DNA from: Armatimonadota bacterium | GTDB taxonomy: Bacteria > Armatimonadota > DASRZA01 | NCBI GenBank assembly: GCA_035686845.1 | Contig: DASRZA010000252.1 | Span: 2,101-66,100, forward strand | Direction of reading: 5' to 3' | Length of the DNA: 64,000 bases | Part shown: in pieces, positions 10,200 to 56,067 of the stretch | How the letters are laid out: each line of letters opens with the position of its first letter | Numbering within the stretch: position 1 is the first letter of the stretch | Made by a program: the position numbers and the translations under genes | Notes under the pieces: generated by a model | The model's database searches: none | Told to the model about the DNA's origin: nothing | What the model saw: the letters and a program-made list of their open reading frames with translations, nothing else

Positions 10200-11345
10200 T
10201 TACCGGTTTTTCGCGCTGAGCTCTCGGTAGAGCCGGTCGTATCGCTCTAAGAATTGGGAAAGGGTGTAATCTCTCGCCACGAGTCGCTGGCCGTTTTCGC
10301 CCATCCTGCGGGCATCATCGGGCGCGGCGAGGAGACGTGAGACGCTGCCGACCAGCGCCTCGGGATCGGCGGGGGGCGATAATAGCCCATTCTGGCCGTG
10401 CTGTACAATGTCCTGGCAGCCGGCCACCGCGGTCACGGCGCATGGCAGCCCCCATGACATCGCTTCCAGAAGCGCATAGGGAAAGCCCTCCCACAGGGAC
10501 GCCATCGCGAAGGCGTCAGCGGCCTGGTAGGCAGCGCCCGGGTCCGCCAGGTAGTCGATGTAATGGAACGCGGAACCGAGCGACCGGCTCGCGGCAGCAA
10601 GAGCCTGGTCCTTCAACTCACCATCCCCTACCCATAGAAAATGGGCGTCGGGGAAGCCGTGGCGAACGGCGGCGGCCATGCGAATCCAGTCCAGCGGCGC
10701 CTTCTGCGCTCGAAGGTGGGCCACGCAAACAATCAACGGTCCGTCCTTCGGCAGGCGAAGCCGACGCCGGCTCTCCTCTCGCTCACGCGGGCCGGTCGGA
10801 ATCACGACACCATTCGGAATCATGCGGAGCCGACCAGCGGTTATCAGCCGGGCACGGCGGATCTCACGGGCCTCCGTCGGCGAGACAGCGACGATGGCGG
10901 TACTCAAGAACCCGCCAAATCGTTCGATCGTCCGGTAGATCGCCTGCTCCGCTGCCGGCATTCCGGAGTGAAATGGCAGCGAATGTGGCGAATAGATGCG
11001 GATCGGGACGCCGGCGGCCACTCCCGCCACTCGTCCCAAAATCCCGGCCTTGGCGCTGTGGCAGTGGATGATCTCAGGCCGCTGTTCGCGCAGCAGCGCA
11101 ATAATCCGGAGGAGAGCCCGCGCGTCCGCGAGTGGGGCAGCCTGGCGGCGCATCGGAATCACATCGATGCGGTGTCCGGCTTCCCGGAGCCGTCCGGCCG
11201 CCGCCGGCGCCCGCTTATCCCGACCCGTTGAGACGATGGCGCTCTGATCCCACTGCGGAAGCCCCGTCAAAAGCTCGGTGAGGTGCCGCCGGGTCCCGCC
11301 GGTGAACGCCTCCAGAATGTGAACAATGCGCCCGCGCTGCATCAT
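10200..11345 (-). CDS. glycosyltransferase family 4
   Basis: GT4 C-terminal motif EGFPYALLEAMSWGLPCAVTAVAG...NGLL and N-terminal GT-B Rossmann region. Confidence 0.8.
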   Translation of the reverse strand: MMQRGRIVHILEAFTGGTRRHLTELLTGLPQWDQSAIVSTGRDKRAPAAAGRLREAGHRIDVIPMRRQAAPLADARALLRIIALLREQRPEIIHCHSAKAGILGRVAGVAAGVPIRIYSPHSLPFHSGMPAAEQAIYRTIERFGGFLSTAIVAVSPTEAREIRRARLITAGRLRMIPNGVVIPTGPREREESRRRLRLPKDGPLIVCVAHLRAQKAPLDWIRMAAAVRHGFPDAHFLWVGDGELKDQALAAASRSLGSAFHYIDYLADPGAAYQAADAFAMASLWEGFPYALLEAMSWGLPCAVTAVAGCQDIVQHGQNGLLSPPADPEALVGSVSRLLAAPDDARRMGENGQRLVARDYTLSQFLERYDRLYRELSAKNR

Positions 11346-11440: not shown

Positions 11441-13468
11441 CTACCACGGCGCCATCGCGAGCATAATGAGGCGGCGGATGAGGGGCCAGAGCCGGCGCTC
11501 GAGGACCTGCAAAACAGTTTGCAGCTCTGCGATTTTGAGCCAGTACGCCGTAAGCGCGAAGGCGAAAAGGGCCGGCGCGGCGCAAGCCAGGAAAATGATG
11601 ACGGCTTTTCGTTTGCTGCCCGACTTCTTCGGCTTTTTTGTGGTTACCGGATGCGTCCCGGTCTTGCCCCCGACCGGACTGGTGATTGATGGATTAGTGG
11701 TTGTCGGGATCGTGACGGCCGAAGTCGCTGCGGCGGCCCGCATGGGTCGAAGCGTTGTCTCGGGCCGGTGATAAACGAACTTCAACGTCGCCCAGAGGAC
11801 CACGATCATCACGAAAGTCGCGACGGCCATCCGCGCGATAAAGCTGACGAGGCCTTTTAGATCGAGCCCTTCTAACCGCGGCGCGAGAACGCCCACAAGG
11901 ATAAAGTCTTTCACGGTTTTGGAGGCGGTGAAGGCGAGCGCCACACCGGTGGCGCCCCAGAGAAAATAGCGAGTCCCGAAATAGGCGACCAGCAGGTAAA
12001 CCACGAATGTGCCGTACGCGATAATCGTCGGAGTTTTGGTGTCCGACATGGAGAAGTAGATTTGCAGGATGACCGTTTCAATCCCTAGGGGCAGCATTCC
12101 GAGTGAGGACCAGACGAGCGGACCCACCACGCGGCCGGCATCGCTCGCCGTGAACTTGCCGCCAAGATAGACCGTCTCCACCATCGGATGCGCGAGCATA
12201 ATGTAAACGACAGTAATCGGGACCATCAGGAAGGTGATCATCTGCAGCGCCGAGAGCAGCGCCTGGCCCAGGCGGCGCCGATCACCCCGCGTGGCCATTT
12301 CGGCGAGAAAGGGGAAGAGCGCAATCGCCAGTGCGTACGGGATAAGCAGGAAAGGGAGGTTGGTCAGCTTGGTGGCAAACTTGAGCGCGGCGACTTGCGA
12401 TGATGCCCCGCTAAAGTAGATATCCAGCACCGGACGAACCGATGAGAGCAGGTTGCCCAACATCAGCGGGACCATGAGAATGAGCAGTTTCTTAAACGCG
12501 GGATCCTGAACATCCAGGCTCCATCGCAGCAGCCGCAGCCGAGGGCGCAGCCCGAAGAGGTGAACCGCCAGCTTTATGCATCCGCCGAGAACCAGGCCGA
12601 TGGCGAAAGCGTCGATTCCGATCCAGCGCCAGAGGGCGAACCCCCCGATGACAATGCCGGCCTTGAGAGCGGTATCGGCGAATGCCGGAAGCGCAAACTC
12701 CTTATAGGCGTTCAGCACCACATACGTGAGCGACGCGACGCTCATCGTGATCGCCGCCGGGAGCATGATCCGGAGCAAGTGAGTGGTGAGCGCCATTTCG
12801 CCTGCGGTAAATCCGTGAGTGATCCGGCCGACTATCTGCCGCGCGAAGAGCTCGGCCAATCCCACTACAAGCAGGAGCACGAGGATCTGGATAATGCCGA
12901 CGATGCTCGCCAGCTTCCAGGCGCTCTCTTCACCTCGCTTCTCCTTGCTCTCGACAAATGGGGGGAGGAACGAATGGGTGAGAAGCTGTTCGCCAAAACC
13001 GAAGATATTCCAGACGACGGTTCCGGCGGCGAAGTAGGATCCCGATATGCTCCCGCCGCCAAAAAAACGGGCGACCAGCCAGGCTTCCAAAAAACCGAGC
13101 ACGCGACCGAGCGCAGTGAAACCCGTGATGGCAAAGGAAGCTTTGCCCACCCGCTCCCGATGTCCGCCATCCCTCCGGCCATCGCCTTTGATCGCGCCGT
13201 TGGAAGCGCCGGCGCTCTCTGCCCGAGATTGGTCAACAACGTTGTCGAAGCCGTCCTCACCAGGCGCCAGCGTTGGCTGCTGATCGCTCCCTTGCGGAAT
13301 CACGTCGGGCGGATCGGGTACGATCGGATTGATCGGAGTCGGAGTCGGTTCGTCCGCGCGGGGACTGGCGCCATCCTCTGGGCGTTCTGACAAATGACTA
13401 CCTCTGCCTTGATCGATGGCGCGGATTTGCAGGGCTTCCCACCGGCCGCGTGATTGTCCGGACTTCAA
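11441..13468 (-). CDS. murJ: MurJ/MviN-family lipid II (or polysaccharide) flippase with low-complexity N- and C-terminal extensions
   Basis: Core LGRVLGFLEAWLVARFFG followed by ~14 TM helices typical of MviN/MurJ. ~100-aa Pro/Gly-rich N-terminal extension and a C-terminal extension with an extra TM (true start may be internal). Confidence 0.7.
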   Translation of the reverse strand: MKSGQSRGRWEALQIRAIDQGRGSHLSERPEDGASPRADEPTPTPINPIVPDPPDVIPQGSDQQPTLAPGEDGFDNVVDQSRAESAGASNGAIKGDGRRDGGHRERVGKASFAITGFTALGRVLGFLEAWLVARFFGGGSISGSYFAAGTVVWNIFGFGEQLLTHSFLPPFVESKEKRGEESAWKLASIVGIIQILVLLLVVGLAELFARQIVGRITHGFTAGEMALTTHLLRIMLPAAITMSVASLTYVVLNAYKEFALPAFADTALKAGIVIGGFALWRWIGIDAFAIGLVLGGCIKLAVHLFGLRPRLRLLRWSLDVQDPAFKKLLILMVPLMLGNLLSSVRPVLDIYFSGASSQVAALKFATKLTNLPFLLIPYALAIALFPFLAEMATRGDRRRLGQALLSALQMITFLMVPITVVYIMLAHPMVETVYLGGKFTASDAGRVVGPLVWSSLGMLPLGIETVILQIYFSMSDTKTPTIIAYGTFVVYLLVAYFGTRYFLWGATGVALAFTASKTVKDFILVGVLAPRLEGLDLKGLVSFIARMAVATFVMIVVLWATLKFVYHRPETTLRPMRAAAATSAVTIPTTTNPSITSPVGGKTGTHPVTTKKPKKSGSKRKAVIIFLACAAPALFAFALTAYWLKIAELQTVLQVLERRLWPLIRRLIMLAMAPW

Positions 13469-13534: not shown

Positions 13535-14752
13535 TCATCTCCCCGCCAACTCCTCTTGCAATATTTTCATCAACGGATCGGCGCTCCGGTTAAATTGGCG
13601 CTCCACCCGGTCACGTCCCACCCTTGCCAGCGACCGGCGCTCCTCCGGGCGGTTGAGAAGCCGGCCGATTTCGTCGGCGAGCGATTCTGGGTCATCCGGT
13701 GGAACCAGTCGCCCCGTCTCGCCATGCGAAATCAATTCCGTAATGGCGCCCACGGGCGTGGTCACCACCGGAACCCCGCACGCCAGCGCTTCAACCAGCA
13801 CGTTGGGCAATCCATCCTGATCCCCGTCCGCCGCCACACGGCAGGGCAACACAAAGAGCGCCGCCCGCCGGTAAGCCGCCAGCGCCCCAACCTCGTCACA
13901 CGCGCCCCTCATGAATACCCGATCTTCGAGCGCCAGGTTCCGAATTAGGTTCTCAAGCGCGGTCCGGTCCGGCCCGTCGCCCAGTATCTCGCACTCAAAC
14001 GCGACTCCTCGATCTCGTAAACGAGCGCAGGCCCGGATGAGCGCGTCAATCCCCTTCTTCGGAACTAAACGGCCGATAAAGAGCAGAGCCGGCGGCCCGG
14101 TGTTACCGGGACTTCCGGGCGCAAACCGTTCCAGATCCAGCGTATGGTATACCAGATGGATATGCTCGTCCGAAATTGCAAAACGGCTGCTGACCAGGCG
14201 GGCGCTCTCCGCCGTACAGGTTAAGACGAACTGCGCCGCGGATACGTTTCCCGCATAGAATGGGTCCAGACGCCGCAGATCGCTGCCATGAACCGTGATA
14301 CTAAAGGTTACCCCGAGAAGGCGCGCCGCAACCCGGCCTACAAGAGCCGGAGCGCCCAAAAAGTGGGAGTGGACATGACGTACACCCGCATTGCGGAACA
14401 GCCCGGCTGCCCATGCCGCCGATGGCAGTAAACTCCGGAGCGTACGCAATTCCGGATGCCCCATTCCCTCCCTGATCGCCCTGATCGCCTCGCGCCAGAA
14501 TAAGGGCCGCAGCAGATTGGGACCCGCAGTCTGCCAGAACTCCAGGCGCCAGGGTGAAGGTCGATAGTGGGTTGACCGGACCAGATCCTGCCATTCGGGG
14601 CGGACTTCGATCGGCCGATGAAGCGCCGCGACGCTGATGCGGGAGCCTTCTGCTCGTAGCCGTTCAATCTCCCGCAGAATAAATGTCTCCGAAACAGCCG
14701 GAAACCGGTCCAGCAGGTATCCGATATGCGGAAGCGCAGCCCTCTTACTCAT
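13535..14752 (-). CDS. glycosyltransferase family 4 (WcaL-like)
   Basis: N-terminal IGYLLDRFPAVSETFILREIERL and C-terminal GT4 motif DGLPNVLVEALACGVPVVTTPVG. Confidence 0.8.
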   Translation of the reverse strand: MSKRAALPHIGYLLDRFPAVSETFILREIERLRAEGSRISVAALHRPIEVRPEWQDLVRSTHYRPSPWRLEFWQTAGPNLLRPLFWREAIRAIREGMGHPELRTLRSLLPSAAWAAGLFRNAGVRHVHSHFLGAPALVGRVAARLLGVTFSITVHGSDLRRLDPFYAGNVSAAQFVLTCTAESARLVSSRFAISDEHIHLVYHTLDLERFAPGSPGNTGPPALLFIGRLVPKKGIDALIRACARLRDRGVAFECEILGDGPDRTALENLIRNLALEDRVFMRGACDEVGALAAYRRAALFVLPCRVAADGDQDGLPNVLVEALACGVPVVTTPVGAITELISHGETGRLVPPDDPESLADEIGRLLNRPEERRSLARVGRDRVERQFNRSADPLMKILQEELAGR

Positions 14753-14779: not shown

Positions 14780-15931
14780 TCAGGCTCCCGCATCCTCGAC
14801 TGCCTGCCATACCACCGCGGTCGTGCGCTCCCAGATAAAACGACGAGCGCGCTCGAGACCAGCGGCGTTAAGCCGGTCCCTGAGCGATGGGTCGGTTAAT
14901 ACCTGCTCCAGCGCGCGGGCGAACGGCTCTGGTGAACCCTCCGCCAGGACCGCGGCGTCTTGCAGATTCTCACGCAGCGCCGCGCCGTTAACGCCGACGA
15001 CCGGAGTCCCGCACGCCATCGCCTCCAACGGCGGTATCCCAAAGCCTTCTGCGGTCGAAGGCTGAGCGAGGAGCGCGGCTTCGCGATAGAGATCCACCAG
15101 CCGCTCGGTCTCCACGTAACCGAGGAACCGCACCCTCTCGGCAATCCCGAGCCGGGCCGCGATTTCAACTAATTGCGGCCGCAGCCCGCGATCTTTGCCG
15201 GCCAGGATCAGTGTTAAGTTCGGCTGCCGGGCGAACAAATTCCCGCAGGATTCTATCAAGAGACGGAGGCCCTTTCGCTCCTCGAGATTGCCAACATAGA
15301 GGATGTAGGGAACGACGCCAGGCTCATTACTCTGCGCGTCCCGCGGTGTGAACCATGGATCGACGCCGAGCGGCGCCACAAACGCGCGGCGTCCAAATCG
15401 CCGCTCCACTTCGAGCTGCACGGCTCGAGTGGGCGTGATAAGCGCACGGGCCCGCCGGATGGTGGGCGGCAGGAGCAGCCGGTAGTGAAGATAGTTCTCC
15501 AACCGGGTCTGCCTCAGATTCAGCCCATGGAGATCATGAACGAAGGTTACGGCAGGGCAGGGGGAGAGCAGTGGCATGACGTACGCCGGACAAAACAAAA
15601 CGTCGGCGCGCCACCGCCGCAAGATCCAGGGCAGTTCCACCTGCTGCCAAAAGATGCGGCGCATCCGGCGCGCGCCGGAGAACGGAAGAAAACAGGCGCG
15701 GGACGCGGGGCGCGGGGCGTGCGGCGCCGGGCGCGGGGCGCGGGGCGCGGGGTTGCTGTCGTCCGTCCTCCGTCCTCCGTCCTCCTCGAACCCGGGCCAG
15801 TCACCGGGGACGAAGATCCGTATTTGATGGCCGCGCGGGTCTGCGAGGAGCCGGCGGATCACGCGGTCGGCGGTCTTCTCCACGCCCGAGTAATGTCCCC
15901 AGAGGACGCTCCCGTCAATGGCGATCTTCAT
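14780..15931 (-). CDS. glycosyltransferase family 4 carrying an in-frame 34-codon low-complexity insertion encoded by heptanucleotide repeats
   Basis: GT4 motif EGFGIPPLEAMACGTPVVGVNGAAL. The N-terminal domain is interrupted by FEEDGGRRTDDSNPAPRAPRPAPHAPRPASRAC, encoded by 15692-15793. Confidence 0.75.
   Translation of the reverse strand: MKIAIDGSVLWGHYSGVEKTADRVIRRLLADPRGHQIRIFVPGDWPGFEEDGGRRTDDSNPAPRAPRPAPHAPRPASRACFLPFSGARRMRRIFWQQVELPWILRRWRADVLFCPAYVMPLLSPCPAVTFVHDLHGLNLRQTRLENYLHYRLLLPPTIRRARALITPTRAVQLEVERRFGRRAFVAPLGVDPWFTPRDAQSNEPGVVPYILYVGNLEERKGLRLLIESCGNLFARQPNLTLILAGKDRGLRPQLVEIAARLGIAERVRFLGYVETERLVDLYREAALLAQPSTAEGFGIPPLEAMACGTPVVGVNGAALRENLQDAAVLAEGSPEPFARALEQVLTDPSLRDRLNAAGLERARRFIWERTTAVVWQAVEDAGA
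15692..15795. repeat. heptanucleotide-periodic repeat tract ((GCGGGGC)~7 then (CTCCGTC)3) inside the GT4 coding sequence
   Basis: ~13 consecutive 7-nt units in register: gcggggc x2, gtgcggc, gccgggc, gcggggc x2, gcggggt ... gtccgtc, ctccgtc x2. Total length keeps the reading frame. Confidence 0.7.
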
Positions 15932-15957: not shown

Positions 15958-17094
15958 TCATCCGATCACGACTCGATAAAGCTGTTCGACGCGGCGCGCG
16001 TGTAAGGTGGAAGAATAATGGGATTCGGCGCGCTGGCGGCCAGCCGCCCCCATCGCCCGGCGTCGGCTGGGGTCTCCAGCAAGCGCTAAGATCGCGGCGC
16101 TGAGGGCCGCCGTATTTCCCGGGGGGATAAGAAGTCCCGTCTCGCCATCGACGACGGTTTCGGCCGCGCCCCCGGCGCCGGCCGCGATGACGGGCACGCC
16201 ACATGCCATCGCTTCAACCGGAACGCGTCCGAATGCCTCATCAGCGGCGGGGTGAATGAGTAGATCCAGCGCGGATAACAGCGTAGGCACGTCTCGAATC
16301 CAGGGCATAACTCGACCGATGCCGGCTAGTTCCGCTGCGTACCGTTCCCGCAGCGCCGGCCCTTCTCCAGGGGGCGGAGCGCCGCAGAGAATAAAGAAGA
16401 GGCGCGGGTCTCGCTTCGCGGCTTCTTTCGCGGCCGCGAGGAAATGCTCGACGCCTTTCCACGGAACCCACTGGCCAATCATACCGGCGATGATGCCGTC
16501 AGTGGGAAGCGTGAGCGACCGCCGCGCCGCGATGGAATCGGCCGGTCGGAATCGGGTCAAATCGATGCCATTGGGGATCATGCTCACCGGGCGATCGGGG
16601 TGACCGGGCAGGAATCGCCAGGAGCGGGCTGAATCCTGCAGCCGCCGCACCACCGCATCCGAAGGAGCGATGCAGCGATGTGAGAACGCCGCCGCAACCC
16701 CGTCGAATCGCTCTGATCCCGCGAGATCTCGCGCGTGCCAGATAAGCGGGACGTGCAGACAGGTTGCGGCGATCCGGGCGGGGATCCATGCCGCACGACC
16801 GTTTGCATGAATGATCGCCGGGCGTGCATTCAGGGCTGCGAGGGCGAGGCGCGCTCCGGCGATAACCGTCTGGCCCACCAGAAAAGCGGCGCCGGCCGGC
16901 CCGCGGGAGCGGGCGCTCGAAACCGGCAGACAAAGAGGAATCCAGCAGGCCGAAGGCGCCATGCGGGCAATTAGCGGCGGCCCGGCCAGCCACGGTTCCC
17001 AGGCCGCCTTATCTAACTCTTCAATAAGACCGGCAAGACTTTGCTGCGCCCCGCCCGGAAACGGCGCTGCGTCTACGTACAGGATTCGGAACAT
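15958..17094 (-). CDS. glycosyltransferase family 4
   Basis: GT4 motif DEAFGRVPVEAMACGVPVIAAGAGGAAETVVDGETGLLI. Confidence 0.8.
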   Translation of the reverse strand: MFRILYVDAAPFPGGAQQSLAGLIEELDKAAWEPWLAGPPLIARMAPSACWIPLCLPVSSARSRGPAGAAFLVGQTVIAGARLALAALNARPAIIHANGRAAWIPARIAATCLHVPLIWHARDLAGSERFDGVAAAFSHRCIAPSDAVVRRLQDSARSWRFLPGHPDRPVSMIPNGIDLTRFRPADSIAARRSLTLPTDGIIAGMIGQWVPWKGVEHFLAAAKEAAKRDPRLFFILCGAPPPGEGPALRERYAAELAGIGRVMPWIRDVPTLLSALDLLIHPAADEAFGRVPVEAMACGVPVIAAGAGGAAETVVDGETGLLIPPGNTAALSAAILALAGDPSRRRAMGAAGRQRAESHYSSTLHARRVEQLYRVVIG

Positions 17095-22749: not shown

Positions 22750-23900
22750 TTAACTCGCTGGCTGTGATTAGCCGCCGTTCAAGTTCCCATTTTGACTGGG
22801 ATTCGGGAGAGTTTGAGAACGTATTGCCCTTCGCAGGGAGATCATCTCCGGTTGGCGCAGTGGTGTCCATCGAGTCGATACGTTGACTTCCAATTGTGTA
22901 GGACTCGTATACGAGCACGTATTCTATAGTAGCATTCCCCAAGACGCGAAGCCGCAAAAGAACGCCGCGGCGGGGTAAACGCCAGAGCGCACCCGACAGA
23001 CTGCTGGCTTCACAGGCGGGAGCGCTGCTGCAATTGGTCTCTCAGTTGTCGCAGCTCGTCCAGGCTCATTGATTGCAGCGATGCTTCCGGTGTCGCCTCG
23101 TCCCCAAGCGAAGACTGAAGGAGTAGAACCTGGCCAATCAACATACCCTGCTGGAGCCCCTGCTGCAGCCCCTGTTGGAGCGCGTGTCTCATTCGGGCGT
23201 TCTCGTCTCGCCGCATCTTTTCGCGGCCTTCATAGATCTCCCGTTCCAGGTCTCTCTTTGAAAGCACCATCAGTTCCTCCACTGCCTGCCGGATCGCTTC
23301 GTCGTCTATCGTCGCCGGCAGCGCCTTCTCATCTAATGTTTCCCCATGCTTCAGAAAGTACAGCCACTGGTCTATCTCACTCTCCAGTTCTTCCGCTCCC
23401 TTGTTGAACTTCGCCAACTCAAAGAGGTGGATATCCAGATCCTCCGTGAACACTGCTCCGGTGGCGCGGTCGATCAGCCCGAACCGCGAGTGATACACCT
23501 TTCCCGGAAAGATTGTTCCATCGACGAAGCAAACTGAGATCGTGGGCTGAAGCAGACTGTAGTCCCGGCCGGCTGGGAGCTGTTCGGTATACAGCTTGGA
23601 CCAATAGAACATTATCCGCTGGGGCAGCTCCGCAAACCCGATCATCTGCATCTCGACGTTGAAGTGTCGGCCAATCTGGTCCCGAGCCTTGATATCCAGG
23701 ATGGAGAGCTTCTCATCAAAAGCAGCCTTCTCGGTGAAAGGATTGAGGATTTCAATATGCACAATCCTCTGGCCTGGAGGCAGTTGGAGGACGGCGTTGA
23801 GCAGGTCGATCAGGAGGGCAGCAGTGGCGAGTCTGCCAAACAGCCACTTGAATGCAAAATCCACCTTGGGATCAATGCCAGAACTCATACTCGTCCCCGG
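22750..23900. mobile_element. lower-GC (~50-52%) islet carrying an Rpn-family nuclease/putative transposase gene
   Basis: Visible drop in GC relative to the flanks. Bounded upstream (24068-24205) by a composite repeat array. Confidence 0.35.
23010..23888 (-). CDS. Rpn-family recombination-promoting nuclease / PD-(D/E)XK putative transposase (TIGR01784-like)
   Basis: N-terminus DPKVDFAFKWLFG, ...LLIDLLNAVL..., IVHIEILNPF...LDIKARDQIGRHFNVEMQ match the YhgA/Rpn (transposase_31) family. Glutamine-rich C-terminal tail. Confidence 0.65.
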   Translation of the reverse strand: MSSGIDPKVDFAFKWLFGRLATAALLIDLLNAVLQLPPGQRIVHIEILNPFTEKAAFDEKLSILDIKARDQIGRHFNVEMQMIGFAELPQRIMFYWSKLYTEQLPAGRDYSLLQPTISVCFVDGTIFPGKVYHSRFGLIDRATGAVFTEDLDIHLFELAKFNKGAEELESEIDQWLYFLKHGETLDEKALPATIDDEAIRQAVEELMVLSKRDLEREIYEGREKMRRDENARMRHALQQGLQQGLQQGMLIGQVLLLQSSLGDEATPEASLQSMSLDELRQLRDQLQQRSRL

Positions 23901-24067
23901 TTCAAAGGATTCTATTCATTTACGACGCCAGCAGAGCCATTATACACCTTACCCGCGTCCTCATACCGGCGCCGGCTCTTGCCTCAGGCCCCGCGCCGCA
24001 CGAGCGGAGGCGTGCGCCACTATGCGGTCGCGTACCCCGTTCCCCCGCCTCGCGCCTTCCGCCTATC

Positions 24068-24205
24068 CTTCGTCCTCCGTCCTCCGTCCTCCGTCCGCGC
24101 CTCGCGCCCTCTGCCTGTCCTCCGTGCTCCGTCCTCTGTCCTCCGTCCGCGCCTCGCGCCCTCTGCCTGTCCTCCGTCCTCCGTCCTCCGTCCTCCGTCC
24201 GCGCC
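24068..24205. repeat. composite GC-rich tandem array: ~52-bp higher-order unit [(TCCGTCC)3-4 + GCGCCTCGCGCCCTCTGCCTG] x ~2.7
   Basis: Unit copies at ~24068-24118, 24119-24170 and partial 24171-24205. Related GTACCCCG/CCTCGCGCC motif at 24040-24067. Lies in the divergent intergenic region between the Rpn gene and nagB. Confidence 0.7.
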
Positions 24206-24242
24206 CGACCTAACCTGCTAATCTAAAGTACGGAGGTAGTTC

Positions 24243-24998
24243 ATGAAAATCATCGTGGGCAAGAATCGGGCGGATATCGGGCGGCAGGCGGCGGACGTGG
24301 GAGCGGACCTGATCCGAGCGGCGATTCGCTCGCGGGGCGCGTCCGCAATCATTTTGGCGACGGGAACGTCGCAGTTTGAGATGCTTTCGGAATTGACGAG
24401 CGCACCTGGCATCGACTGGCGCCGGGTCACCGGCTTTCACCTGGACGAGTATGTTGGCATGACGGAAAGCCATCCGTCGTCGTTTCGGCGCTACCTGCGT
24501 GAACGGTTTGTTGAACGGCTGCCGCGAGCCCCCCGGGCGTTTCACTTCATCAACGGGGAAAACGATCCTGCCGCCGAATGCCGCCGGCTCAACAACCTGA
24601 TTTCCGGCGAGACGATTGACGTGGCGTTCGTCGGCATCGGCGAGAATGGCCACCTGGCGTTCAATGATCCGCCCGCCGACTTCGAGACGGAGACGCCGTA
24701 CCTTCTGGTGACGCTTGATGAAGCTTGCCGCCGCCAGCAGCTTGGCGAGGGGTGGTTTCCGAGTCTGGAGGCGGTTCCGATGCAGGCCATTTCGATGTCT
24801 ATTCGACAGATCATGAAATCGAAGGCGATCGTTTGCTGCGTGCCGGACCTACGGAAGGCCGCGGCAGTGAAAGCATGTATCGAAGGTCCCGTGTCCCCGG
24901 AAGCGCCGGCATCTATTCTGCAGCGTCATCCGGAGACGTCGATGTACCTGGATGAGGGATCTGCTTCGCTCCTGAAAGAACGTCCTCCCGCGGTTTAA
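24243..24998 (+). CDS. nagB: glucosamine-6-phosphate deaminase
   Basis: [37 protein letters not shown] are hallmark NagB/6-phosphogluconolactonase-family motifs. SD GGAGG upstream. Confidence 0.8.
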
Positions 24999-29189: not shown

Positions 29190-29440
29190 GACGGGGACGG
29201 CCGAAGAAGGATCAATACCGTTCAAATAACGGGCCCAGTGATTGAAATCACGGGCTAGAACCGCACCAAGTCCACCTACGTGGACTCCTGGAACGAGGCC
29301 AGCAGCGTCTTATCTGAACGGTGTTGGAAGAAGGATGAATCAAAAACGCTGGAGTTATAGGCGCCTGTTCCTGCTTGGGAGGAGAGTCCGTGAGAGAGGT
29401 CTGTGGTGGGCGGAGGACGGAGCCGTGAAGCTCCGCGGGA

Positions 29441-29468
29441 TGCGTACCTCGCGCCTCGTACCTCGCGC
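29441..29468. repeat. 14-bp tandem repeat GTACCTCGCGCCT(C/G) x2
   Basis: Exact adjacent copies. Same GTACC(T/C)CGCGCC family as at 24040-24067 and 31895-31950. Confidence 0.6.
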
Positions 29469-29493
29469 CTGATTGCGAAGGGAAGGGAATGCT

Positions 29494-30279
29494 ATGAAGC
29501 TCGGATGTAATACGGTGGTGTTGGGGACGACGGATTTTCCTGCGGCGCTTCAGCACGTTGAGTGGGCCGGTTATAAGTACGTGGAACTGGCGGCGATCAA
29601 AGGGATGTGCGAGCACGTCCGGATCGGGCAGGACCCGGCGGAGATCAAGGATCTCCTGGCGAAACACAGCCTGGAAGCGACGGCGATGGAGGCTGCGACG
29701 AATGATCGGGAGCGGTTGATGGGTTTGTTTGCCCTGGCGCGTGAGATCGGCGTACCCATTGTCAACATTGGGTCGGGGGGTAAGACGGGGGATGAAGAGT
29801 CGACTCGAAACGCCATTCAACTGATGCGGGAGTTCGCGAAGCTGGCGGGTGAGCAGGGTGTTAAGCTGGCGGTCAAGCCGCACGTGGGACAGGCCATCTA
29901 CAACGCTGAAACCGGGCTGCGCCTGGTCTCCGAGGTGAATGATCCGGCGCTGGGTCTCAATTTTGATCCGAGTCACCTTTTCCGGGCCAATGAGACTCCG
30001 GAAGACGTGGCCCCTCGCTGGGGATCCCGGATCATTACCTCTCATTTTCGAGACTGCCCCTGGCGTGAAGGCAGCCCGGGCACGCCCGATCAACAGATTC
30101 CGGGGCGAGGCGTCGTGAACATTCCTGCGACACTGGCGGCCCTGAAGAAGAGTGGCTACACTGGCCCCTTAAACCTGGAGGTCATTGGCGCGGGCGGATG
30201 GGAGCTGTCAAGGGCGATGGGGATCGTCGCTGAAGCTCACGGATATCTGAATCGCTGTCTCCAGGAAATCGGCGTGTAA
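29494..30279 (+). CDS. sugar-phosphate isomerase/epimerase (xylose-isomerase-like TIM barrel)
   Basis: MKLGCNTVVLG...VELAA... and C-terminal metal-binding blocks of AP-endonuclease-2/XI-like TIM barrels. ATG 29494 with SD GAAGGGAAGGGA. The ORF is also open from TTG 29473. Confidence 0.65.
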   Translation: MKLGCNTVVLGTTDFPAALQHVEWAGYKYVELAAIKGMCEHVRIGQDPAEIKDLLAKHSLEATAMEAATNDRERLMGLFALAREIGVPIVNIGSGGKTGDEESTRNAIQLMREFAKLAGEQGVKLAVKPHVGQAIYNAETGLRLVSEVNDPALGLNFDPSHLFRANETPEDVAPRWGSRIITSHFRDCPWREGSPGTPDQQIPGRGVVNIPATLAALKKSGYTGPLNLEVIGAGGWELSRAMGIVAEAHGYLNRCLQEIGV

Positions 30280-31770: not shown

Positions 31771-31837
31771 TGTGTGGATGCGTGAATGTGTGGGTGCGTG
31801 AGTATGTGGGTGCGTGAGTATGTGGGCGCGTGAGGTG
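31771..31837. repeat. ~16-bp tandem repeat TGTGGGTGCGTGAGTA x4 immediately downstream of the GS-family gene
   Basis: Copies at 31771-86, 31787-804, 31805-20 and 31821-37 with point differences. Confidence 0.65.
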
Positions 31838-31894: not shown

Positions 31895-31950
31895 GGCGCC
31901 GCGCGCCTCGGGGATCGCGCCCCGTACCCCGCGCCTCGCGCCCCGTACCT
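31895..31950. repeat. GC-rich repeats of the CGCGCC(C/T)CG(T)ACC family
   Basis: GCGCGCCTCGGGGATCGCGCCCCGTACCCCGCGCCTCGCGCCCCGTACCTCGGGCC. Same motif family as 29441-29468 and 24040-24120. Confidence 0.55.
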
Positions 31951-31978
31951 CGGGCCCTCCCCACGGGAGTCTGATACG

Positions 31979-44657: not shown

Positions 44658-44736
44658 TCAAAGGCTCCAGTCGCTTGAAACGCGCAGTTGAAAATGTGCC
44701 AAACGTCCGGCCATCCTATCCCTCCTTAATAACCCC

Positions 44737-44784
44737 CAGAAGTAAACGCTTCAGAAGTAAACATTCCAGAAATAAACGCTCCAG
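44737..44784. repeat. 15-16-bp tandem repeat CAGAAGTAAACGCTT x3 in the intergenic spacer of the nucleotide-sugar operon
   Basis: ccagaagtaaacgctt / cagaagtaaacattc / cagaaataaacgctc, in the low-GC spacer between the dehydrogenase stop (44803) and the epimerase start (44657). Confidence 0.6.
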
Positions 44785-52446: not shown

Positions 52447-53871
52447 TTAGCGACGCACGGCTGCCCGCCGCCACCATTCCGGGTGGTCGATATGGAGCTT
52501 AATGTAGCCCCCCGAAGGGTCCAGGTAACCGTAATCGGACCAGATGGCGACGCCCTGCCCGTCGATCAGATAGCTGCTGGGGAAGACACGGATTCCGTAG
52601 CGAGTCAGCAGCGCCTTCTGAGGAGCGCCCGGCTGCAGTGTCACGATCGGGTACGATAGATGGGTCTGCGCCAACTCGCTTTTGAGCTCGGCGGGGGTAT
52701 CATTGGCATCAATGACGAGAGCGGTGAATCCCTGGTCCTTCAACGTCTGATAGTCTTTCTCAATCTGGAGAAGCCCCTGGCGGCGAAGCTTAAAGTGATC
52801 GATAAACGCGAGCAGGAGTATCTTCTTGCCTTTCAGCGTGCTGGCGAGGGAGACAGCTCCGCCGTGCGGAGTGGGTATGTTGAATTGAGGCGCTGGCCCA
52901 TGGACCAAACTCGCGTGCATGTTCTCGCGACTGAACGGTTTCGCGCCGGCCGGGCGATGAAACACGAAATCGGAAGGGTTGAGATGGACGTTTAAGTGGA
53001 TGTCGTGGAGGGTGACCGTGTTCGAAGCGCCTACGCCGATCTGAGTCACCTTGCGAAGGAGATGGTCCGGGCCGAAGTAGAGACGGCTCTGCGAATGCCA
53101 GTACGGGTTTACCGGATGTACGACGATGTAGTAGCCATCGGGCCTTCGAGTGGTACCCGAGAACGTCCTACGGTCGCTGGTCACGCTCGATTCCACAATC
53201 TGGCAGCGAACGCCATCGACCACCCCTGTCCCCGCGGCATGAAGGTCGGGCCGGCTGAGATAATTGCGGAGAGCGCGCGGATCGTCCCCGTAGAATGCCT
53301 CAACGGGAGGTAGATCCATGCCGCCCAGTGTGAAGAACGCTTTTCTCACCGGATTGGTGTTGTATCTGATCTGGTGGTGTTCCCAGTCCATCCAGGCGGA
53401 CTGCATCTTACCGTCGGAGACGTCCACGCTGCGGAACCATCCGGACATGACGATACGGCCGATATCCAGCTTCTCCAGCTCTACGACCGCGGTCTCTTCG
53501 GGCATTTTCTTACCGGCGGGCTGATCAATGCCGCCGGTCGAATCAATCGTGATACGTCCGGTGAGCGTCTTGACACGCGCTTCGGCCAGAATGGCCTGGT
53601 GTATAATCGACTGCGCGGATTGCCGATCCGGTTGGGTCGGTCGATTGGTTCGGCCCGGGCGGGCATGCGCCGGGAAGAGCAGCAGACCCAGTCCAACCGC
53701 TGCGGCGAGAAGGGCGCCGTAATAACTGATACGATAGAAGAGGGAGCGCGAAACCGGGTCGCGCCGGCGCATCAGCCACGCGGTCAGAAGTCCAATCGAG
53801 AGCGCCACGGAAACCTGGATTGAAAGGGCTGCGCCAAACGGTAGACGATCAAGAAGGGTCAATGGATGCAT
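52447..53871 (-). CDS. membrane-anchored protein with C-terminal TlpA-like thioredoxin-fold domain lacking the CxxC motif
   Basis: N-terminal TM helices. C-terminal GKKILLLAFIDHFKLRRQG...FPSSYLIDGQGVAIW resembles TlpA/redoxin but with F-K in place of C-x-x-C. Confidence 0.45.
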   Translation of the reverse strand: MHPLTLLDRLPFGAALSIQVSVALSIGLLTAWLMRRRDPVSRSLFYRISYYGALLAAAVGLGLLLFPAHARPGRTNRPTQPDRQSAQSIIHQAILAEARVKTLTGRITIDSTGGIDQPAGKKMPEETAVVELEKLDIGRIVMSGWFRSVDVSDGKMQSAWMDWEHHQIRYNTNPVRKAFFTLGGMDLPPVEAFYGDDPRALRNYLSRPDLHAAGTGVVDGVRCQIVESSVTSDRRTFSGTTRRPDGYYIVVHPVNPYWHSQSRLYFGPDHLLRKVTQIGVGASNTVTLHDIHLNVHLNPSDFVFHRPAGAKPFSRENMHASLVHGPAPQFNIPTPHGGAVSLASTLKGKKILLLAFIDHFKLRRQGLLQIEKDYQTLKDQGFTALVIDANDTPAELKSELAQTHLSYPIVTLQPGAPQKALLTRYGIRVFPSSYLIDGQGVAIWSDYGYLDPSGGYIKLHIDHPEWWRRAAVRR

Positions 53872-54018
53872 CGGAAATCCTCCATGGGCAATCGGGACCC
53901 CGGCGCGTTACCGTGGCGTCGTTCGTCGAGGGGTGAAGGTAACGGCCGTAGTCGTTGTGCCATAGTCGATTATGTCCAGCATTGTAGTCCTCCGCTTCGC
54001 GTCGCGTCAACTCAGGCG

Positions 54019-54070
54019 GGGGACGGAGGACGGAGGACAGAGGACGGAGGACGGAGGACGGACGACGGAT
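54019..54070. repeat. (GGACGGA)~7 heptanucleotide tandem repeat
   Basis: ggacgga x2, ggacaga, ggacgga x3, cgacgga. Reverse complement of the TCCGTCC repeats at 15761-15790 and 24068-24205. Confidence 0.7.
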
Positions 54071-54109
54071 CTCGCGTGCTCCTTGCGCCCGTCTGCGGGG
54101 GGGTGTAGC

Positions 54110-54258
54110 ATGAATCACAACGGCTGCAGTTACAGGCCCCTCTTCCCGCTTCGGGGAGAGGTCGGGAGAAAGGCAAACCAAAGGATGAGGGATGAAGGAT
54201 GAATCACAACGGGCGCAGTTAGAGGCCCCTCTTCCCGTTTCGGGGAGAGGTCGGGAGA
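54110..54258 (+). repeat. tandem duplication (89-bp period) of a 60-bp element containing a 10-bp-stem hairpin, directly upstream of the HEAT-THUMP-MTase gene
   Basis: Copy 1 at 54110-54169 and copy 2 at 54199-54258 (ATGAATCACAACGG(C/G)(T/C)GCAGTTA(C/G)AGGCCCCTCTTCCCG(C/T)TTCGGGGAGAGGTCGGGAGA). Stem CCTCTTCCCG/CGGGGAGAGG with a T-G wobble, which favours RNA on the plus strand. Confidence 0.6.
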
Positions 54259-54285
54259 GAGGTTGAGACGCTGAGAACTGAAAAA

Positions 54286-56067
54286 ATGCCAGCCGACATT
54301 GTTTCTAACCGGCTGACCGCTTTGAAAGCGGCGACGACGGACGAGCGTCTGATCATCGCCGAAGAACTGGCGTCGCTGGCGCCGGCGGCCTCGGACCGTC
54401 TGATTGCGGCGCTGCGACATCCGAACCGCCATGCCCGGTGGGCGGCTGCGCACGCGTTGGGCCGCGGAGGTATCACAGCGGCCGGTCCTGCTCTCCGGGA
54501 ACTGCTTCAAGATCCACAGCCGAGAGTCGCGCGGACCGCGGCGTGGGCGCTCGGACGGATCCGAGACGAAGAGTCCACCCCGGCGCTCATCGCGGCGATG
54601 CGCTCTCCAAACAGCCATCTCTCGACGACCGCGGCGTGGGCGCTCGGGCGGATTGGGACACCGGACGCGCTCGAGGCGCTCTCCGCGGCGCTGGGCGAGG
54701 CGTCTCCCCGGAAGCTCCGGACCATCGCTCTCGCCTTCGCCGAGATCGGTCCCGAGGCGATTGAGTCGCTCGTCACGCTGCTTCGGACCGGATCTGTCGC
54801 CGAACGGACGCGGGCTGCGCATATCCTGGCCCGGTTCGGCGAGAATGCCGTGCCACTGATCCTCCCGCTCTTAGAATCAACCGAGGTGAAGTCGCGACGC
54901 GCGGCCGCCCATATTCTAGGGACGCTCCGGATTCCCGCGGCGGGCGCTTCCGCGAATAATCGTCGCGCGTCGATCGAGGCAGGCCTGGCAAAGGCTTTGA
55001 GTGATGAAGACAGCCGGGTGCGCCGGAACGCGGCCCGGTCTGCTGGCGCGCTGGGTTTGATTTCCGCGCGACCGGCGTTGGAGTCGCTTCTGGGCGGTGA
55101 CCCGGAGCAGGTGAGAGTTGCGGCGAACGCGCTGGCCGCGCTCGGGGATGCGGCGGCCGGCCCCGCGCTGCAATCGGTTCTGGACCGGGAGGATCCGGCT
55201 TTACCTGAAGGCCCTGCCCAGGCGGTGCGCCGGGCGCTGCACCAGATCGACCTCGCGCCGCGAGAGACGCGCAGAGTCGCTTCGCGGCTGCCCGAGGTCG
55301 ATCTGCCTTCTCGCTCTGATTACCTGGCGGTCGTTACAGCGGGGTTGGAAGCTGTGGCCTGGGAAGAGATCAGCGCGCGTTTGGCGGGCGCCTCGCTCAA
55401 ATCATTTGGCGAAGGCACGGTGACGTTTCATTGGACGGGCAGTCCGCAGGCCGGCGCGATTCTTAGATCGGTTCGTCGACTGGCGCAGGGCGGCGCCGAA
55501 CCCAAGGAAATCGCGCTCGCGCGGCGACTCCGTCGCTACCGTGTTCGCACCCTTCCGGCGTCGCTTGAACCGACGACAGCCTACGCGCTCGCTCGACTCG
55601 CTAATCAGGGGGAGCGTGATGTCTTTGTGGATCTTACGTGTGGGAGCGCCACCATCGCGATTGAGCGGGCGCTGGATGGGCCGGCTCGCGCAATATTAGC
55701 GGGAGACATTGATCCAGCCGCCCTGCAGGCCGCCGGAGAGAACGTCGCCGCGGGCGCGCAGCCGGTTCGCCTCGTGCAGTGGGATGCTCGCCGCATTCCC
55801 TTGCGCGACGAGTCGGTGAATGCCGTAGTGGCGAATCTGCCGTACGGCCGCCGGTCCGGTGAGCACCAAGAGAACCTCACGCTCTACCCGGCGATACTCC
55901 TTGAAATTGACCGCATTCTCCGCGGATCCGGCATCGCTGTTCTCCTCACCGCCGAAAAGCGCCTCCTTCGCCGATCCCTCGAATCTCATCCGAATCTCGT
56001 CCTCGTCTCCGAGCGCGAGATCGAAGCCGGTGGTCTGCGTCCGTCGCTGTTCGTGCTGCAGAAGTAA
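54286..56067 (+). CDS. HEAT-repeat (PBS lyase-like) N-terminal region fused to THUMP-like plus class-I SAM-dependent methyltransferase (m2G/N6-adenine-type, NLPY motif)
   Basis: N-terminal repeats RWAAAHALGRGG / RTAAWALGRIRD / TTAAWALGRIG / RAAHILARFG. C-terminal FVDLTCGSATIAIERAL (SAM motif I) and VVANLPYGRR (motif IV (D/N)PPY variant). Intervening THUMP-like region. Confidence 0.6.
   Translation: MPADIVSNRLTALKAATTDERLIIAEELASLAPAASDRLIAALRHPNRHARWAAAHALGRGGITAAGPALRELLQDPQPRVARTAAWALGRIRDEESTPALIAAMRSPNSHLSTTAAWALGRIGTPDALEALSAALGEASPRKLRTIALAFAEIGPEAIESLVTLLRTGSVAERTRAAHILARFGENAVPLILPLLESTEVKSRRAAAHILGTLRIPAAGASANNRRASIEAGLAKALSDEDSRVRRNAARSAGALGLISARPALESLLGGDPEQVRVAANALAALGDAAAGPALQSVLDREDPALPEGPAQAVRRALHQIDLAPRETRRVASRLPEVDLPSRSDYLAVVTAGLEAVAWEEISARLAGASLKSFGEGTVTFHWTGSPQAGAILRSVRRLAQGGAEPKEIALARRLRRYRVRTLPASLEPTTAYALARLANQGERDVFVDLTCGSATIAIERALDGPARAILAGDIDPAALQAAGENVAAGAQPVRLVQWDARRIPLRDESVNAVVANLPYGRRSGEHQENLTLYPAILLEIDRILRGSGIAVLLTAEKRLLRRSLESHPNLVLVSEREIEAGGLRPSLFVLQK

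Follow-up and report, generated by a model that had tools for sequence, protein, structure and literature searches.

Simple sequence repeats (SSRs) underlie phase variation of several glycosyltransferases, among them Lic2A and LgtC of Haemophilus influenzae, whose genes carry tetranucleotide tracts, and the products of the Neisseria lgt genes, which carry poly-G. A glycosyltransferase gene of family GT4 in an Armatimonadota bacterium carries a run of 7-nt repeats inside its reading frame, and an earlier note on this DNA proposed that slippage in the run might switch the gene ON and OFF, with tolerated domestication of a dispersed repeat as the alternative. The question raised by the locus is therefore whether the tract is a contingency switch or a passenger within the protein. 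It was addressed in the window, the whole 64,000-nt stretch of DNA analysed, and in its homologues, in assemblies covering the tract, and in a large protein collection; taken together, the evidence favours a passenger.

The glycosyltransferase gene and its heptamer tract

The gene and the parts of its tract are as follows.
14780-15931, minus strand: GT4 glycosyltransferase gene that hosts the tract (ORF of 383 aa; GT-B fold, retaining-type family)
15758-15785, minus strand: sub-tract A, on the coding strand three perfect GGAGGAC units plus GGACGAC (Tandem Repeats Finder, codon map)
15753-15757, minus strand: junction AGCAA, codons S59-N60 (read directly from the sequence)
15695-15752, minus strand: sub-tract B, on the coding strand CC plus eight units of CCGCGCC (Tandem Repeats Finder, perfect-SSR scan, codon map)

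The product of ORF 14780-15931 matches exactly the NCBI protein HET6384442.1 of an Armatimonadota metagenome-assembled genome (MAG), and its gene lies in a cluster of four GT4 genes and a MurJ-like flippase. Pfam assigns to it the domains PF00534 (8.7e-35; 120.2 bits against a cut-off of 26.4), PF13439 (5.5e-13; 49.7 bits against 28.5), and PF13692. The AlphaFold2 (AF2) model has a mean pLDDT of 92.8 and a pTM of 0.90, and its best Foldseek matches are MshA, PimA, BshA, and WaaG, with E-values of 1e-21 to 1e-15. Both glutamates of the E-x7-E motif (E295-x7-E303) are invariant in 60 homologues. Domains, model, and motif concur in placing the protein in the GT4 family, with a predicted GT-B fold of two Rossmann domains.

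The heptamer tract occupies 15695-15785 of the window, a span of 91 nt made up of 13 units in a single unbroken 7-nt phase. Direct reading thus upholds the earlier count of about 13 units, and the ORF and Pfam results their in-frame position within the minus-strand gene; the coordinates first given, 15705-15795, lie some 10 nt away from those measured, and a total length of 102 nt was not reproduced. From 15785 to 15695 the coding-strand units are GGAGGAC x3, GGACGAC, AGCAACC, CCGCGCC x3, CGGCGCC, GCACGCC, CCGCGCC, CCGCGTC, and CCGCGCC. Tandem Repeats Finder reports two blocks, GGCGCGG x8.3 at 15695-15752 (84% matches, score 88) and GTCCTCC x4.0 at 15758-15785 (95% matches, score 49), and it is the junction AGCAA, which together with the following CC forms the 7-nt unit AGCAACC, that holds both sub-tracts in one heptamer phase. 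The first unit of sub-tract A (15779-15785) provides the Glu-Glu-Asp codons of a conserved FEED motif, and sub-tract A together with the GA before it (15786-15787) codes for E49-D58, while sub-tract B codes for PAPRAPRPAPHAPRPASRA and has its G-rich complement on the template strand. The tract-encoded peptide GGRRTDDSNPAPRAPRPAPHAPRPASRA corresponds to residues 52-79 of the protein; counted by units, the tract spans codons 49-79. If the first unit is taken as native FEED, the extra length amounts to 84 nt, or 12 units and 28 codons. Three of the eight units in sub-tract B are mutated (CGGCGCC, GCACGCC, and CCGCGTC; four substitutions in 56 nt), and its longest uninterrupted run in the perfect-SSR scan is three units, at 15730-15750. 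Each sub-tract thus holds three uninterrupted units of its motif and neither forms a long homogeneous tract. The possibility that the tract is a 5' untranslated region, with the true start downstream, was rejected, as the N-terminal 50 residues align to homologues and are modelled as β1-α1-β2.

In the AF2 model, the tract residues fall in the N-terminal Rossmann domain, in the surface loop that joins β2 to β3, in keeping with the earlier description of a low-complexity loop between N-terminal Rossmann elements. The low-pLDDT blocks of the model are confined to residues 51-80 (58, 54, and 71), which form a coil flanked by strands 36-41 and 77-81. Among 60 homologues, the β2-β3 loop varies widely in length across the family and is longest here, the segment P42-R92 measuring 49 aa, where the median is 27 and the next-longest value 38. 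Over the stretch in which the window protein has 31 aa, the nearest orthologues have 16-20 aa, none of it repeat, and the syntenic orthologue (protein P0005, contig L089) shows GAGGAGGAC once, at the FEED codons, and lacks the repeat; the contigs of four relatives (L089-L092) contain no period-7 runs. These comparisons span some distance, the next relatives being at most 56% identical among the matches listed, and a protein search of genome contigs for a close relative gave a best match of 37% identity among those listed. Absence of the tract from the orthologous genes, together with the low pLDDT, argues against the insert as a conserved structural element, a reading that was rejected. As modelled, the tract is translated as a disordered Pro/Ala/Arg-rich (PAPRAPR)n-like segment that leaves the GT-B fold intact.

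A dispersed heptamer family in the window

The GT4 tract is one of five or six heptamer arrays in 64 kb and the only one within confirmed coding sequence, the others being intergenic.
24046-24205, plus strand: higher-order array of three 52-nt units, each CGCGCCT CGCGCCC TCTGCCT followed by (GTCCTCC)4
29443-29470, plus strand: array of (CGTACCT CGCGCCT) x2, its CGCGCCY unit related to sub-tract B
31896-31957, plus strand: CGCGCCY and CGTACCY heptamers in an array upstream of an Fe-ADH gene at 31979
54017-54069, minus strand: array of 7.6 GTCCTCC units between the divergent genes 52447-53871 (minus) and 54286-56067 (plus)
54181-54203: heptamer array

The window contains eight period-7 runs, whereas 100 second-order Markov simulations gave a mean of 0.17 and a maximum of one. 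Of the other periods, 4-13 and 15 yielded 0-3 runs apiece, and period 14, at twice the unit length, yielded seven; the window has six perfect SSRs of three or more units, and five are heptamers. The unit sequences found are GTCCTCC/GGAGGAC, CCGCGCC, CGTACCY, and AAGGATG. With this excess over chance and its multiple, mainly intergenic loci, the set constitutes a dispersed heptameric family of the STRR-like kind that extends genome-wide in this bacterium.

Several of these arrays are tied to the GT4 tract by sequence and lie close to genes. The array at 24046-24205, which stops 38 nt upstream of a NagB-like gene at 24243, is built of the same heptamer families as the tract, and its family D1 also aligns to 15729-15787. 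The tract and the array near 54 kb have one exact 27-mer in common, at 15758-15784 and 54040-54066 (minus strand), which takes in the variant unit GTCGTCC; zero chance matches are expected. The recurrence of the tract's heptamers near 24 and 54 kb, already seen in the earlier note, is thereby confirmed, with limits at 24046-24205 and 54017-54069. The array at 29443-29470 precedes a plus-strand gene that apparently starts at 29494, and the minus-strand ORF overlapping it has no Pfam match. None of the window units is identical to those of the described families with which they were compared (STRR CCCCAGT/TTGGTCA of Nostoc loci, GGGNATC, and TAACTGA); the closest match outside is CGTACCTCGCACCT in a Chloroflexaceae MAG (contig L063). 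Heptamer arrays were also found in the cyanobacterial and Chloroflexota loci fetched for comparison.

Invariance of the tract and competing explanations

The tract is identical, with no gap, indel, or SNP, in six assemblies from six sample/run accessions (ERZ27256801, ERZ27256814, ERZ27256799, JGI 3300031672, SRR8554485, and SRR8554501), and the eight sites at which contig L083 differs all lie outside it. All of the assemblies represent one nearly clonal population (99.9-100% identity) and, as consensus sequences, would not reveal length variants of low frequency. The intergenic arrays are likewise unchanged, that at 54017-54069 being invariant in three assemblies. Ten simulated slippage products were sought among ~15 billion proteins: alleles of both sub-tracts with one or three units gained or lost, an allele of sub-tract B lacking two units, and a C-terminal fragment with its restart at M90. 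None was present. When the 22 nt that flank the tract on its left were searched for in metagenome contigs, the one match (L081) was unrelated and due to chance. One null allele of the gene was found, at a different site.
15057-15067, minus strand: 11-nt deletion with TCG microhomology, in the JGI-derived protein P0001

The deletion, as deduced from alignment of P0001 against the window DNA, frameshifts the gene after residue 287. Contigs L087 and L086 of SRR8554501 terminate within the deleted segment, at 15066 and 15061, and the 90% protein cluster of the GT4 protein consists of the wild type and the deletion allele alone. This allele suggests that the presence or absence of GT4 activity in the population may still vary through ordinary mutation.

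According to the contingency reading, heptamer slippage changes single units often and so reversibly switches the gene, and hence the surface glycan, ON and OFF. Its premise that a one-unit change shifts the frame holds in simulation, ±1 unit in either sub-tract cutting the protein short at 125 or 134 aa. The 7-nt unit is not divisible by three, and the tract, at codons 49-79, lies in the N-terminal quarter of a surface-glycan glycosyltransferase, as is typical of true contingency repeats, within a cluster of four GT4 genes and a flippase; the null allele, too, may be counted in its favour. The three perfect units per sub-tract reach the minimum, permissive SSR screening threshold used for H. 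influenzae (PMC2651432), so some elevated slippage is conceivable, and rare switching by a ±1-unit slip that truncates the protein is possible. Frequent switching is nonetheless unlikely. Length and sequence at the tract show zero variation in six assemblies, though SNPs are present elsewhere, and no assembly breaks at the tract, while one breaks at the 11-nt indel site. The intergenic arrays of the same repeats are equally invariant, and no other SSR-bearing genes were found in the cluster. The array is imperfect (84% matches), whereas heptanucleotide SSRs with a documented function run to 13-38 perfect copies (PMC2651432). No OFF allele attributable to the repeat was found in the collection of ~15 billion proteins, the sole null allele, P0001, being due to an unrelated deletion. 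It is the combination of decayed three-unit runs, six identical assemblies, and missing slippage alleles that speaks against the phase variation earlier proposed. A gentler version, in which this free-living bacterium recruited a functional switch of low rate from a genome-wide heptamer family and its OFF variants are invisible in consensus sequence, is quite improbable; under it, the 11-nt null allele would hint at fluctuating selection on the glycan, for example by phage pressure.

Other explanations would give the tract a role without frameshifting, or none in the cell at all. All three heptamer frames yield the same 7-aa peptide, so gain or loss of three units merely lengthens or shortens the PAPRAPR segment. 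In-frame steps of this size (21 nt, 7 aa) might therefore tune an Arg-rich loop beside the basic amphipathic helix ARRMRRIFWQQ, which by analogy with PimA might bind the membrane, and so alter membrane or acceptor interaction while the enzyme stays active. Such tuning agrees with the −3-unit simulation, which leaves the PAPRAPR segment shorter and nothing else changed, and with the widely varying loop length of the family, but the ±3-unit alleles are absent from ~15 billion proteins, the six assemblies are identical, and the AF2 loop is a low-confidence coil without predicted contacts, all of which makes it very improbable. It is highly doubtful that the tract acts instead as nucleic acid, through a template-strand G-quadruplex (G4) or through three GGAGG sites in the mRNA that serve as Shine-Dalgarno (SD)-like pause sites, and modulates how the operon is transcribed or translated, a role that the intergenic arrays could also have. 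GGG(G) runs do recur at 7-nt spacing on the plus strand, with seven runs of at least three G on the template strand, and G-rich heptamers form G4 in Xanthomonas and Nostoc, where they are avoided on the coding strand (PMC4692102); the G-rich strand of the GT4 tract is likewise non-coding. The minimum free energy fold of the leader of gene 24243 does contain pairing between an array unit and the SD region, but the fold of this leader (24040-24262) is no better than those of shuffled sequences (z = -0.93), a gathering-threshold Rfam scan of the window gave no matches, and orthologues function without the tract. That a collapsed or chimeric repeat was put inside the gene by assembly or sequencing error is scarcely credible and was rejected on the six concordant assemblies. 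Short-read assemblers can mis-join repeats, and one Logan contig (L094) begins within the 24046-24205 array; yet three pipelines (ENA MEGAHIT k141, JGI, and Logan) gave the same sequence from six sample/run accessions, the perfect runs of at most 24 nt are below the k-mers used (k141, as taken from the ENA contig names, and k = 31 in Logan), the frame is intact, and both flanks of the tract align with homologues.

The tract is, in our judgement, probably a fixed and decaying in-frame expansion, or gene-conversion product, of the lineage-specific dispersed heptamer family. Either local slippage or an exchange with an intergenic array, through ectopic recombination or gene conversion, would have produced it, and the exact start of the tract at a native GGAGGAC, the Glu-Glu-Asp codons of FEED, suggests that this unit served as the seed. 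Each 7-nt unit displaces the reading frame, so that a coding sequence can retain only net gains that are multiples of three units, a rule with which the twelve units (84 nt) beyond the native one would agree. The units would later have diverged through point mutation, and the mutated units in sub-tract B imply that the array is no longer homogenized by slippage. The tract would then be a tolerated passenger and not a regulatory switch. Tolerated domestication, the alternative offered in the earlier note, fits the shared 27-mer, the intergenic arrays, the disordered and variable loop, and the orthologues that lack the tract. Dispersed heptamer repeats described elsewhere lie for the most part between genes, and those occasionally inserted into ORFs are tolerated at the periphery of the protein (PMC4679880; PMC4692102).

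Comparison with known repeat systems

The locus documents a lineage-specific dispersed heptanucleotide family in Armatimonadota, such repeats being best known from Cyanobacteria, Xanthomonas, and Beggiatoaceae. It also offers an example of how a repeat may enter a catalytic-domain gene, by way of a native-codon seed, a multiple of three units, and a disordered loop. Were the switch to prove real, SSR-based phase variation of glycans would reach beyond host-adapted pathogens into an environmental, candidate-rich phylum; as matters stand, the locus cautions that repeat geometry alone is insufficient for calling contingency loci when arrays are short and decayed.

Like the glycosyltransferase genes of SSR contingency systems, the GT4 gene has a non-triplet repeat in the 5' part of its ORF, at which a one-unit change truncates the product. 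Among the SSR-mediated phase-variable systems, heptanucleotide repeats are found at hmw1a and hmw2a (PMC2651432). Known functional heptamers comprise 13-38 perfect copies, whereas the GT4 tract has three perfect units per motif in an 84%-matched array, shows neither copy-number polymorphism nor a tract-derived OFF allele, and belongs to a dispersed family found chiefly between genes. Its host is an uncultured environmental Armatimonadota bacterium and not a host-adapted pathogen.

Counterparts are also found among the dispersed bacterial heptamers, which include the cyanobacterial STRR repeats (Calothrix, as cited in PMC4692102), the G4-forming GGGNATC and GGGGAYT repeats of Xanthomonas and Nostoc (PMC4692102), and the TAACTGA repeats of Beggiatoaceae, Cyanobacteria, and Bacteroidetes (PMC4679880). 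The window shares with them short arrays (2-8 units) of 7-nt units of strand-biased composition, a multiplicity of copies in excess between genes and often directly upstream of start codons, and rare ORF copies placed where the protein tolerates them. It differs in its unit sequences and its phylum, in a GT4 tract seeded on native codons, and in the higher-order 52-nt units at 24046-24205; the GT4 copy, moreover, is inside a catalytic domain, in an internal loop, whereas ORF copies of TAACTGA are mostly at or near a protein terminus (PMC4679880). At the level of the protein, the tract resembles loop insertions in globular enzymes, being a disordered Pro/Ala/Arg-rich segment in a variable loop with the fold predicted to be unaffected. 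It is unlike low-complexity insertions in general in that its DNA origin can be identified, a 7-nt repeat read through three frames giving rise to a 7-aa period.

Heptamer tract and its host gene

The heptamer tract lies within an ORF that is a bona fide GT4 glycosyltransferase gene: its product matches PF00534 (8.7e-35) and PF13439 (5.5e-13) in Pfam, is identical to NCBI HET6384442.1 (Armatimonadota MAG), has MshA, PimA, BshA, and WaaG (GT-B fold) as the nearest solved structures to its model, and carries the E295-x7-E303 positions that are invariant across 60 homologs. Three further GT4 genes and a MurJ-like flippase gene are neighbors, and the glycan-locus setting proposed in the earlier note is therefore right.

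Features of the GT4 locus and related arrays
10200-11345, neighboring GT4 gene
11441-13468, neighboring MurJ-like flippase gene
13535-14752, neighboring GT4 gene
14780-15931, minus strand, GT4 glycosyltransferase ORF (383 aa) enclosing the tract
15695-15752, GGCGCGG array, 8.3 copies, 84% matches (Tandem Repeats Finder)
15758-15785, GTCCTCC array, 4.0 copies, 95% matches, adjoining the GGCGCGG array (Tandem Repeats Finder)
15958-17094, neighboring GT4 gene
24046-24205, related intergenic array, 52-nt higher-order unit holding CGCGCCY and (GTCCTCC)4
29443-29470, related intergenic array
31896-31957, related intergenic array
54017-54069, related intergenic array
54181-54203, related intergenic array

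Read on the coding (minus) strand from 15785 to 15695, the tract comprises 91 nt in a single unbroken 7-nt phase, with 13 units in the order GGAGGAC x3, GGACGAC, AGCAACC, CCGCGCC x3, CGGCGCC, GCACGCC, CCGCGCC, CCGCGTC, CCGCGCC. Perfect runs reach at most three units in either the GGAGGAC part (sub-tract A) or the CCGCGCC part (sub-tract B), the latter carrying 4 substitutions in 56 nt. The earlier description of about 13 units was thus essentially accurate, although its coordinates were displaced by about 10 nt and its length of 102 nt could not be reproduced.

An AlphaFold2 model built with a 60-sequence alignment is confident overall (mean pLDDT 92.8, pTM 0.90), its sole low-confidence stretch being residues 51-80 (block means 58, 54, and 71), a coil with strand 36-41 on one side and strand 77-81 on the other, before helix 89-106. 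From this low-confidence coil in a confident model, the tract is predicted to encode a disordered loop of the N-terminal Rossmann domain that leaves the fold undisturbed; the loop position first suggested is borne out, and the loop is modeled as disordered coil. A heptamer repeat read continuously visits all three frames in turn, so (CCGCGCC)n yields a cyclic permutation of PAPRAPR from any entry frame, and the entry frame affects only the sequence downstream of the tract.

Heptamer family and other repeats of the window

Eight period-7 runs occur in the window, whereas second-order Markov simulations yield 0.17 on average and never more than 1; the other periods from 4 to 13 and 15 yield zero to three runs each, and seven are seen at period 14, which doubles 7. 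Of the six perfect SSRs with three or more units, five are heptamers, and none of the six exceeds four units. The recurrence of the tract heptamers in intergenic arrays, as previously noted, extends to five other sites, and only the GT4 tract sits within confirmed coding sequence. A 27-mer, GTCGTCCGTCCTCCGTCCTCCGTCCTC, which includes the variant unit GTCGTCC, occurs exactly at both 15758-15784 (plus strand) and 54040-54066 (minus strand), with 0 expected by chance; this points to a common origin of, or gene conversion between, the two arrays.

Plus-strand genes lie downstream of the arrays at 24046-24205, 29443-29470, and 31896-31957, starting at 24243, at about 29494, and at 31979, respectively, and each array has its C/T-rich strand in the sense direction of the gene that follows it; of the GT4 tract, the CCGCGCC part is oriented in the same way and the GGAGGAC part the opposite way. 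The 54-kb array occupies a divergent intergenic region. At 24 kb (24046-24262), three 52-nt higher-order units end 38 nt before the start of a NagB-like gene whose SD region, GUACGGAGG, is an inverted heptamer unit; in the MFE fold, this region is base-paired to one of the array units. The predicted pairing suggests anti-SD sequestration by the array unit, but the fold energy is no better than that of shuffled sequences (z = -0.93).

A dispersed element about 74 nt long that contains an internal hairpin, GGATGAATCACAACGG..GCAGTTA.AGGCCCCTCTTCCCG.TTCGGGGAGAGGTCGGGAGA.AGG, has three intergenic copies adjoining heptamer arrays (29325-29398, 54100-54173, and 54189-54262; 65-89% identical to the reference copy), one of which is entered by an (AAGGATG)n run. 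It has no Rfam match and resembles small repeats of the REP or MITE type. The 24-kb array also adjoins a PD-(D/E)XK "transposase" family gene (23010-23888; PF12784, 5e-59), and three independent contigs (L082, L083, and L093) start or end within it, at 23233-23478, which suggests a multi-copy element in the source genome. Further tandem repeats comprise a 16-nt unit, TGTGGGTGCGTGAGTA, at 31773-31834 (3.9 copies, 91% matches), immediately after a glutamine synthetase gene and ahead of a heptamer array and an Fe-ADH gene; a perfect 17-mer, GAGGCCCCGCCATCAGT, at 2954-2997 (2.6 copies); and a 15-mer, CCAGAAGTAAACGCT, at 44736-44784 (3.3 copies).

Origin and stability of the tract

The closest relatives of the GT4 protein (P0002-P0005; Armatimonadota, 51-56% identity) show, in the ortholog comparison proposed earlier, shorter sequence in place of the repeat, with a repeat-free FEE-to-LPF spacing of 16-20 aa vs. 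31 aa in the window protein. Across 60 homologs, the P42-R92 segment has a median of 27 aa, and that of the window is the longest at 49 aa (next, 38 aa). P0005 is a positional ortholog: its contig L089 retains the HEAT-hydrolase-GT4-GT4 gene order, and the GT4-MurJ-GT4 block lies farther downstream. The conserved FEED motif of P0005 is encoded by TTT GAG GAG GAC, containing one native GGAGGAC; the window has two extra perfect GGAGGAC units and GGACGAC immediately after the corresponding codons, and the array therefore begins on native sequence. No period-7 runs occur in the relatives' contigs L089-L092, which makes the heptamer family specific to the window's lineage.

These data probably reflect a tolerated, fixed, and slowly decaying in-frame insertion from the dispersed heptamer family, and the domestication alternative offered in the earlier note fits the family arrays, the common 27-mer, the disordered loop, and the absence of the tract from orthologs. 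Such an insertion would have been seeded at the native GGAGGAC, confined to a naturally variable, disordered loop, and limited in coding sequence to multiples of three units, as fits the 12 units (84 nt, 28 codons) past the native one. Units may have arisen by local slippage or been copied from an intergenic array; the common 27-mer favors some inter-array exchange.

Active phase variation through the tract, the switching first proposed, is improbable. Its premise is sound, in that simulated gain or loss of one unit in either sub-tract yields a product ending at 125 or 134 aa (loss of three units keeps the frame), but sub-tract B is imperfect, perfect runs reach only three units, and neither a homogeneous tract, length polymorphism, nor slippage alleles were found. 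Contigs were sought by the GT4 protein and by both flanking genes, the latter giving no bias to an intact tract, and were retrieved from ERZ27256801, ERZ27256814, ERZ27256799, JGI 3300031672, SRR8554485, and SRR8554501. Six tract-spanning assemblies, consensus sequences of a nearly clonal population, align to the window without gaps and with zero SNPs in the tract, and rare length variants may escape for that reason; the eight differences in L083 all lie outside the tract, and none of the assemblies retrieved breaks at it. Ten simulated slippage products (either sub-tract changed by ±1 or ±3 units, sub-tract B changed by −2 units, and a C-terminal fragment with translation restarted at M90) were all absent from a collection of about 15 billion protein sequences, in which the 90% cluster of the GT4 protein has two members, wild type and P0001. 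The intergenic arrays are equally invariant (54-kb array in three assemblies, 24-kb array in one). In-frame length tuning and a nucleic-acid-level role jointly take up the small share of probability left beside fixed insertion and switching.

P0001, a 310-aa JGI allele, equals the window protein up to residue 287, tract included, and is then frameshifted; compared with the window DNA, it implies an 11-nt deletion at about 15057-15067 bounded by TCG microhomology. Two SRR8554501 contigs over the gene, L087 and L086, end within this segment (15066 and 15061), as would be expected if the population is mixed or coverage is low at that point. The deletion may be a natural loss-of-function polymorphism, and if part of the population has lost the glycosyltransferase, the observed route is ordinary deletion rather than repeat slippage.

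Relation to known repeats

The likeness of the GT4 tract to SSR contingency loci is one of geometry, and it lacks three of their four testable defining features. Functional heptanucleotide SSRs have 13-38 copies, and three units is a permissive screening minimum (Power et al., 2009; PMC2651432), vs. perfect runs of three units here. The tract matches what is described for dispersed heptameric repeats: in some bacteria, heptamers are over-represented between genes, and GGGNATC repeats form G4 structures (PMC4692102). Arrays resembling cyanobacterial STRR are present in the Nostoc loci fetched for comparison, and heptamer arrays were found in other fetched Anaerolineae and cyanobacterial loci. 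An intergenic (CGTACCT CGCACCT)n array in a different phylum (uncultured Chloroflexaceae MAG, CAZVEN010000066.1; L063, 10018-10056) has a single base difference in each 14-mer relative to (CGTACCT CGCGCCT)2 at 29443-29470. TAACTGA repeats occasionally lie in ORFs, at the periphery of the encoded protein (PMC4679880). The GT4 copy lies within a loop of the catalytic domain, which is unusual; the unit sequences and the phylum, Armatimonadota, are new relative to described families.
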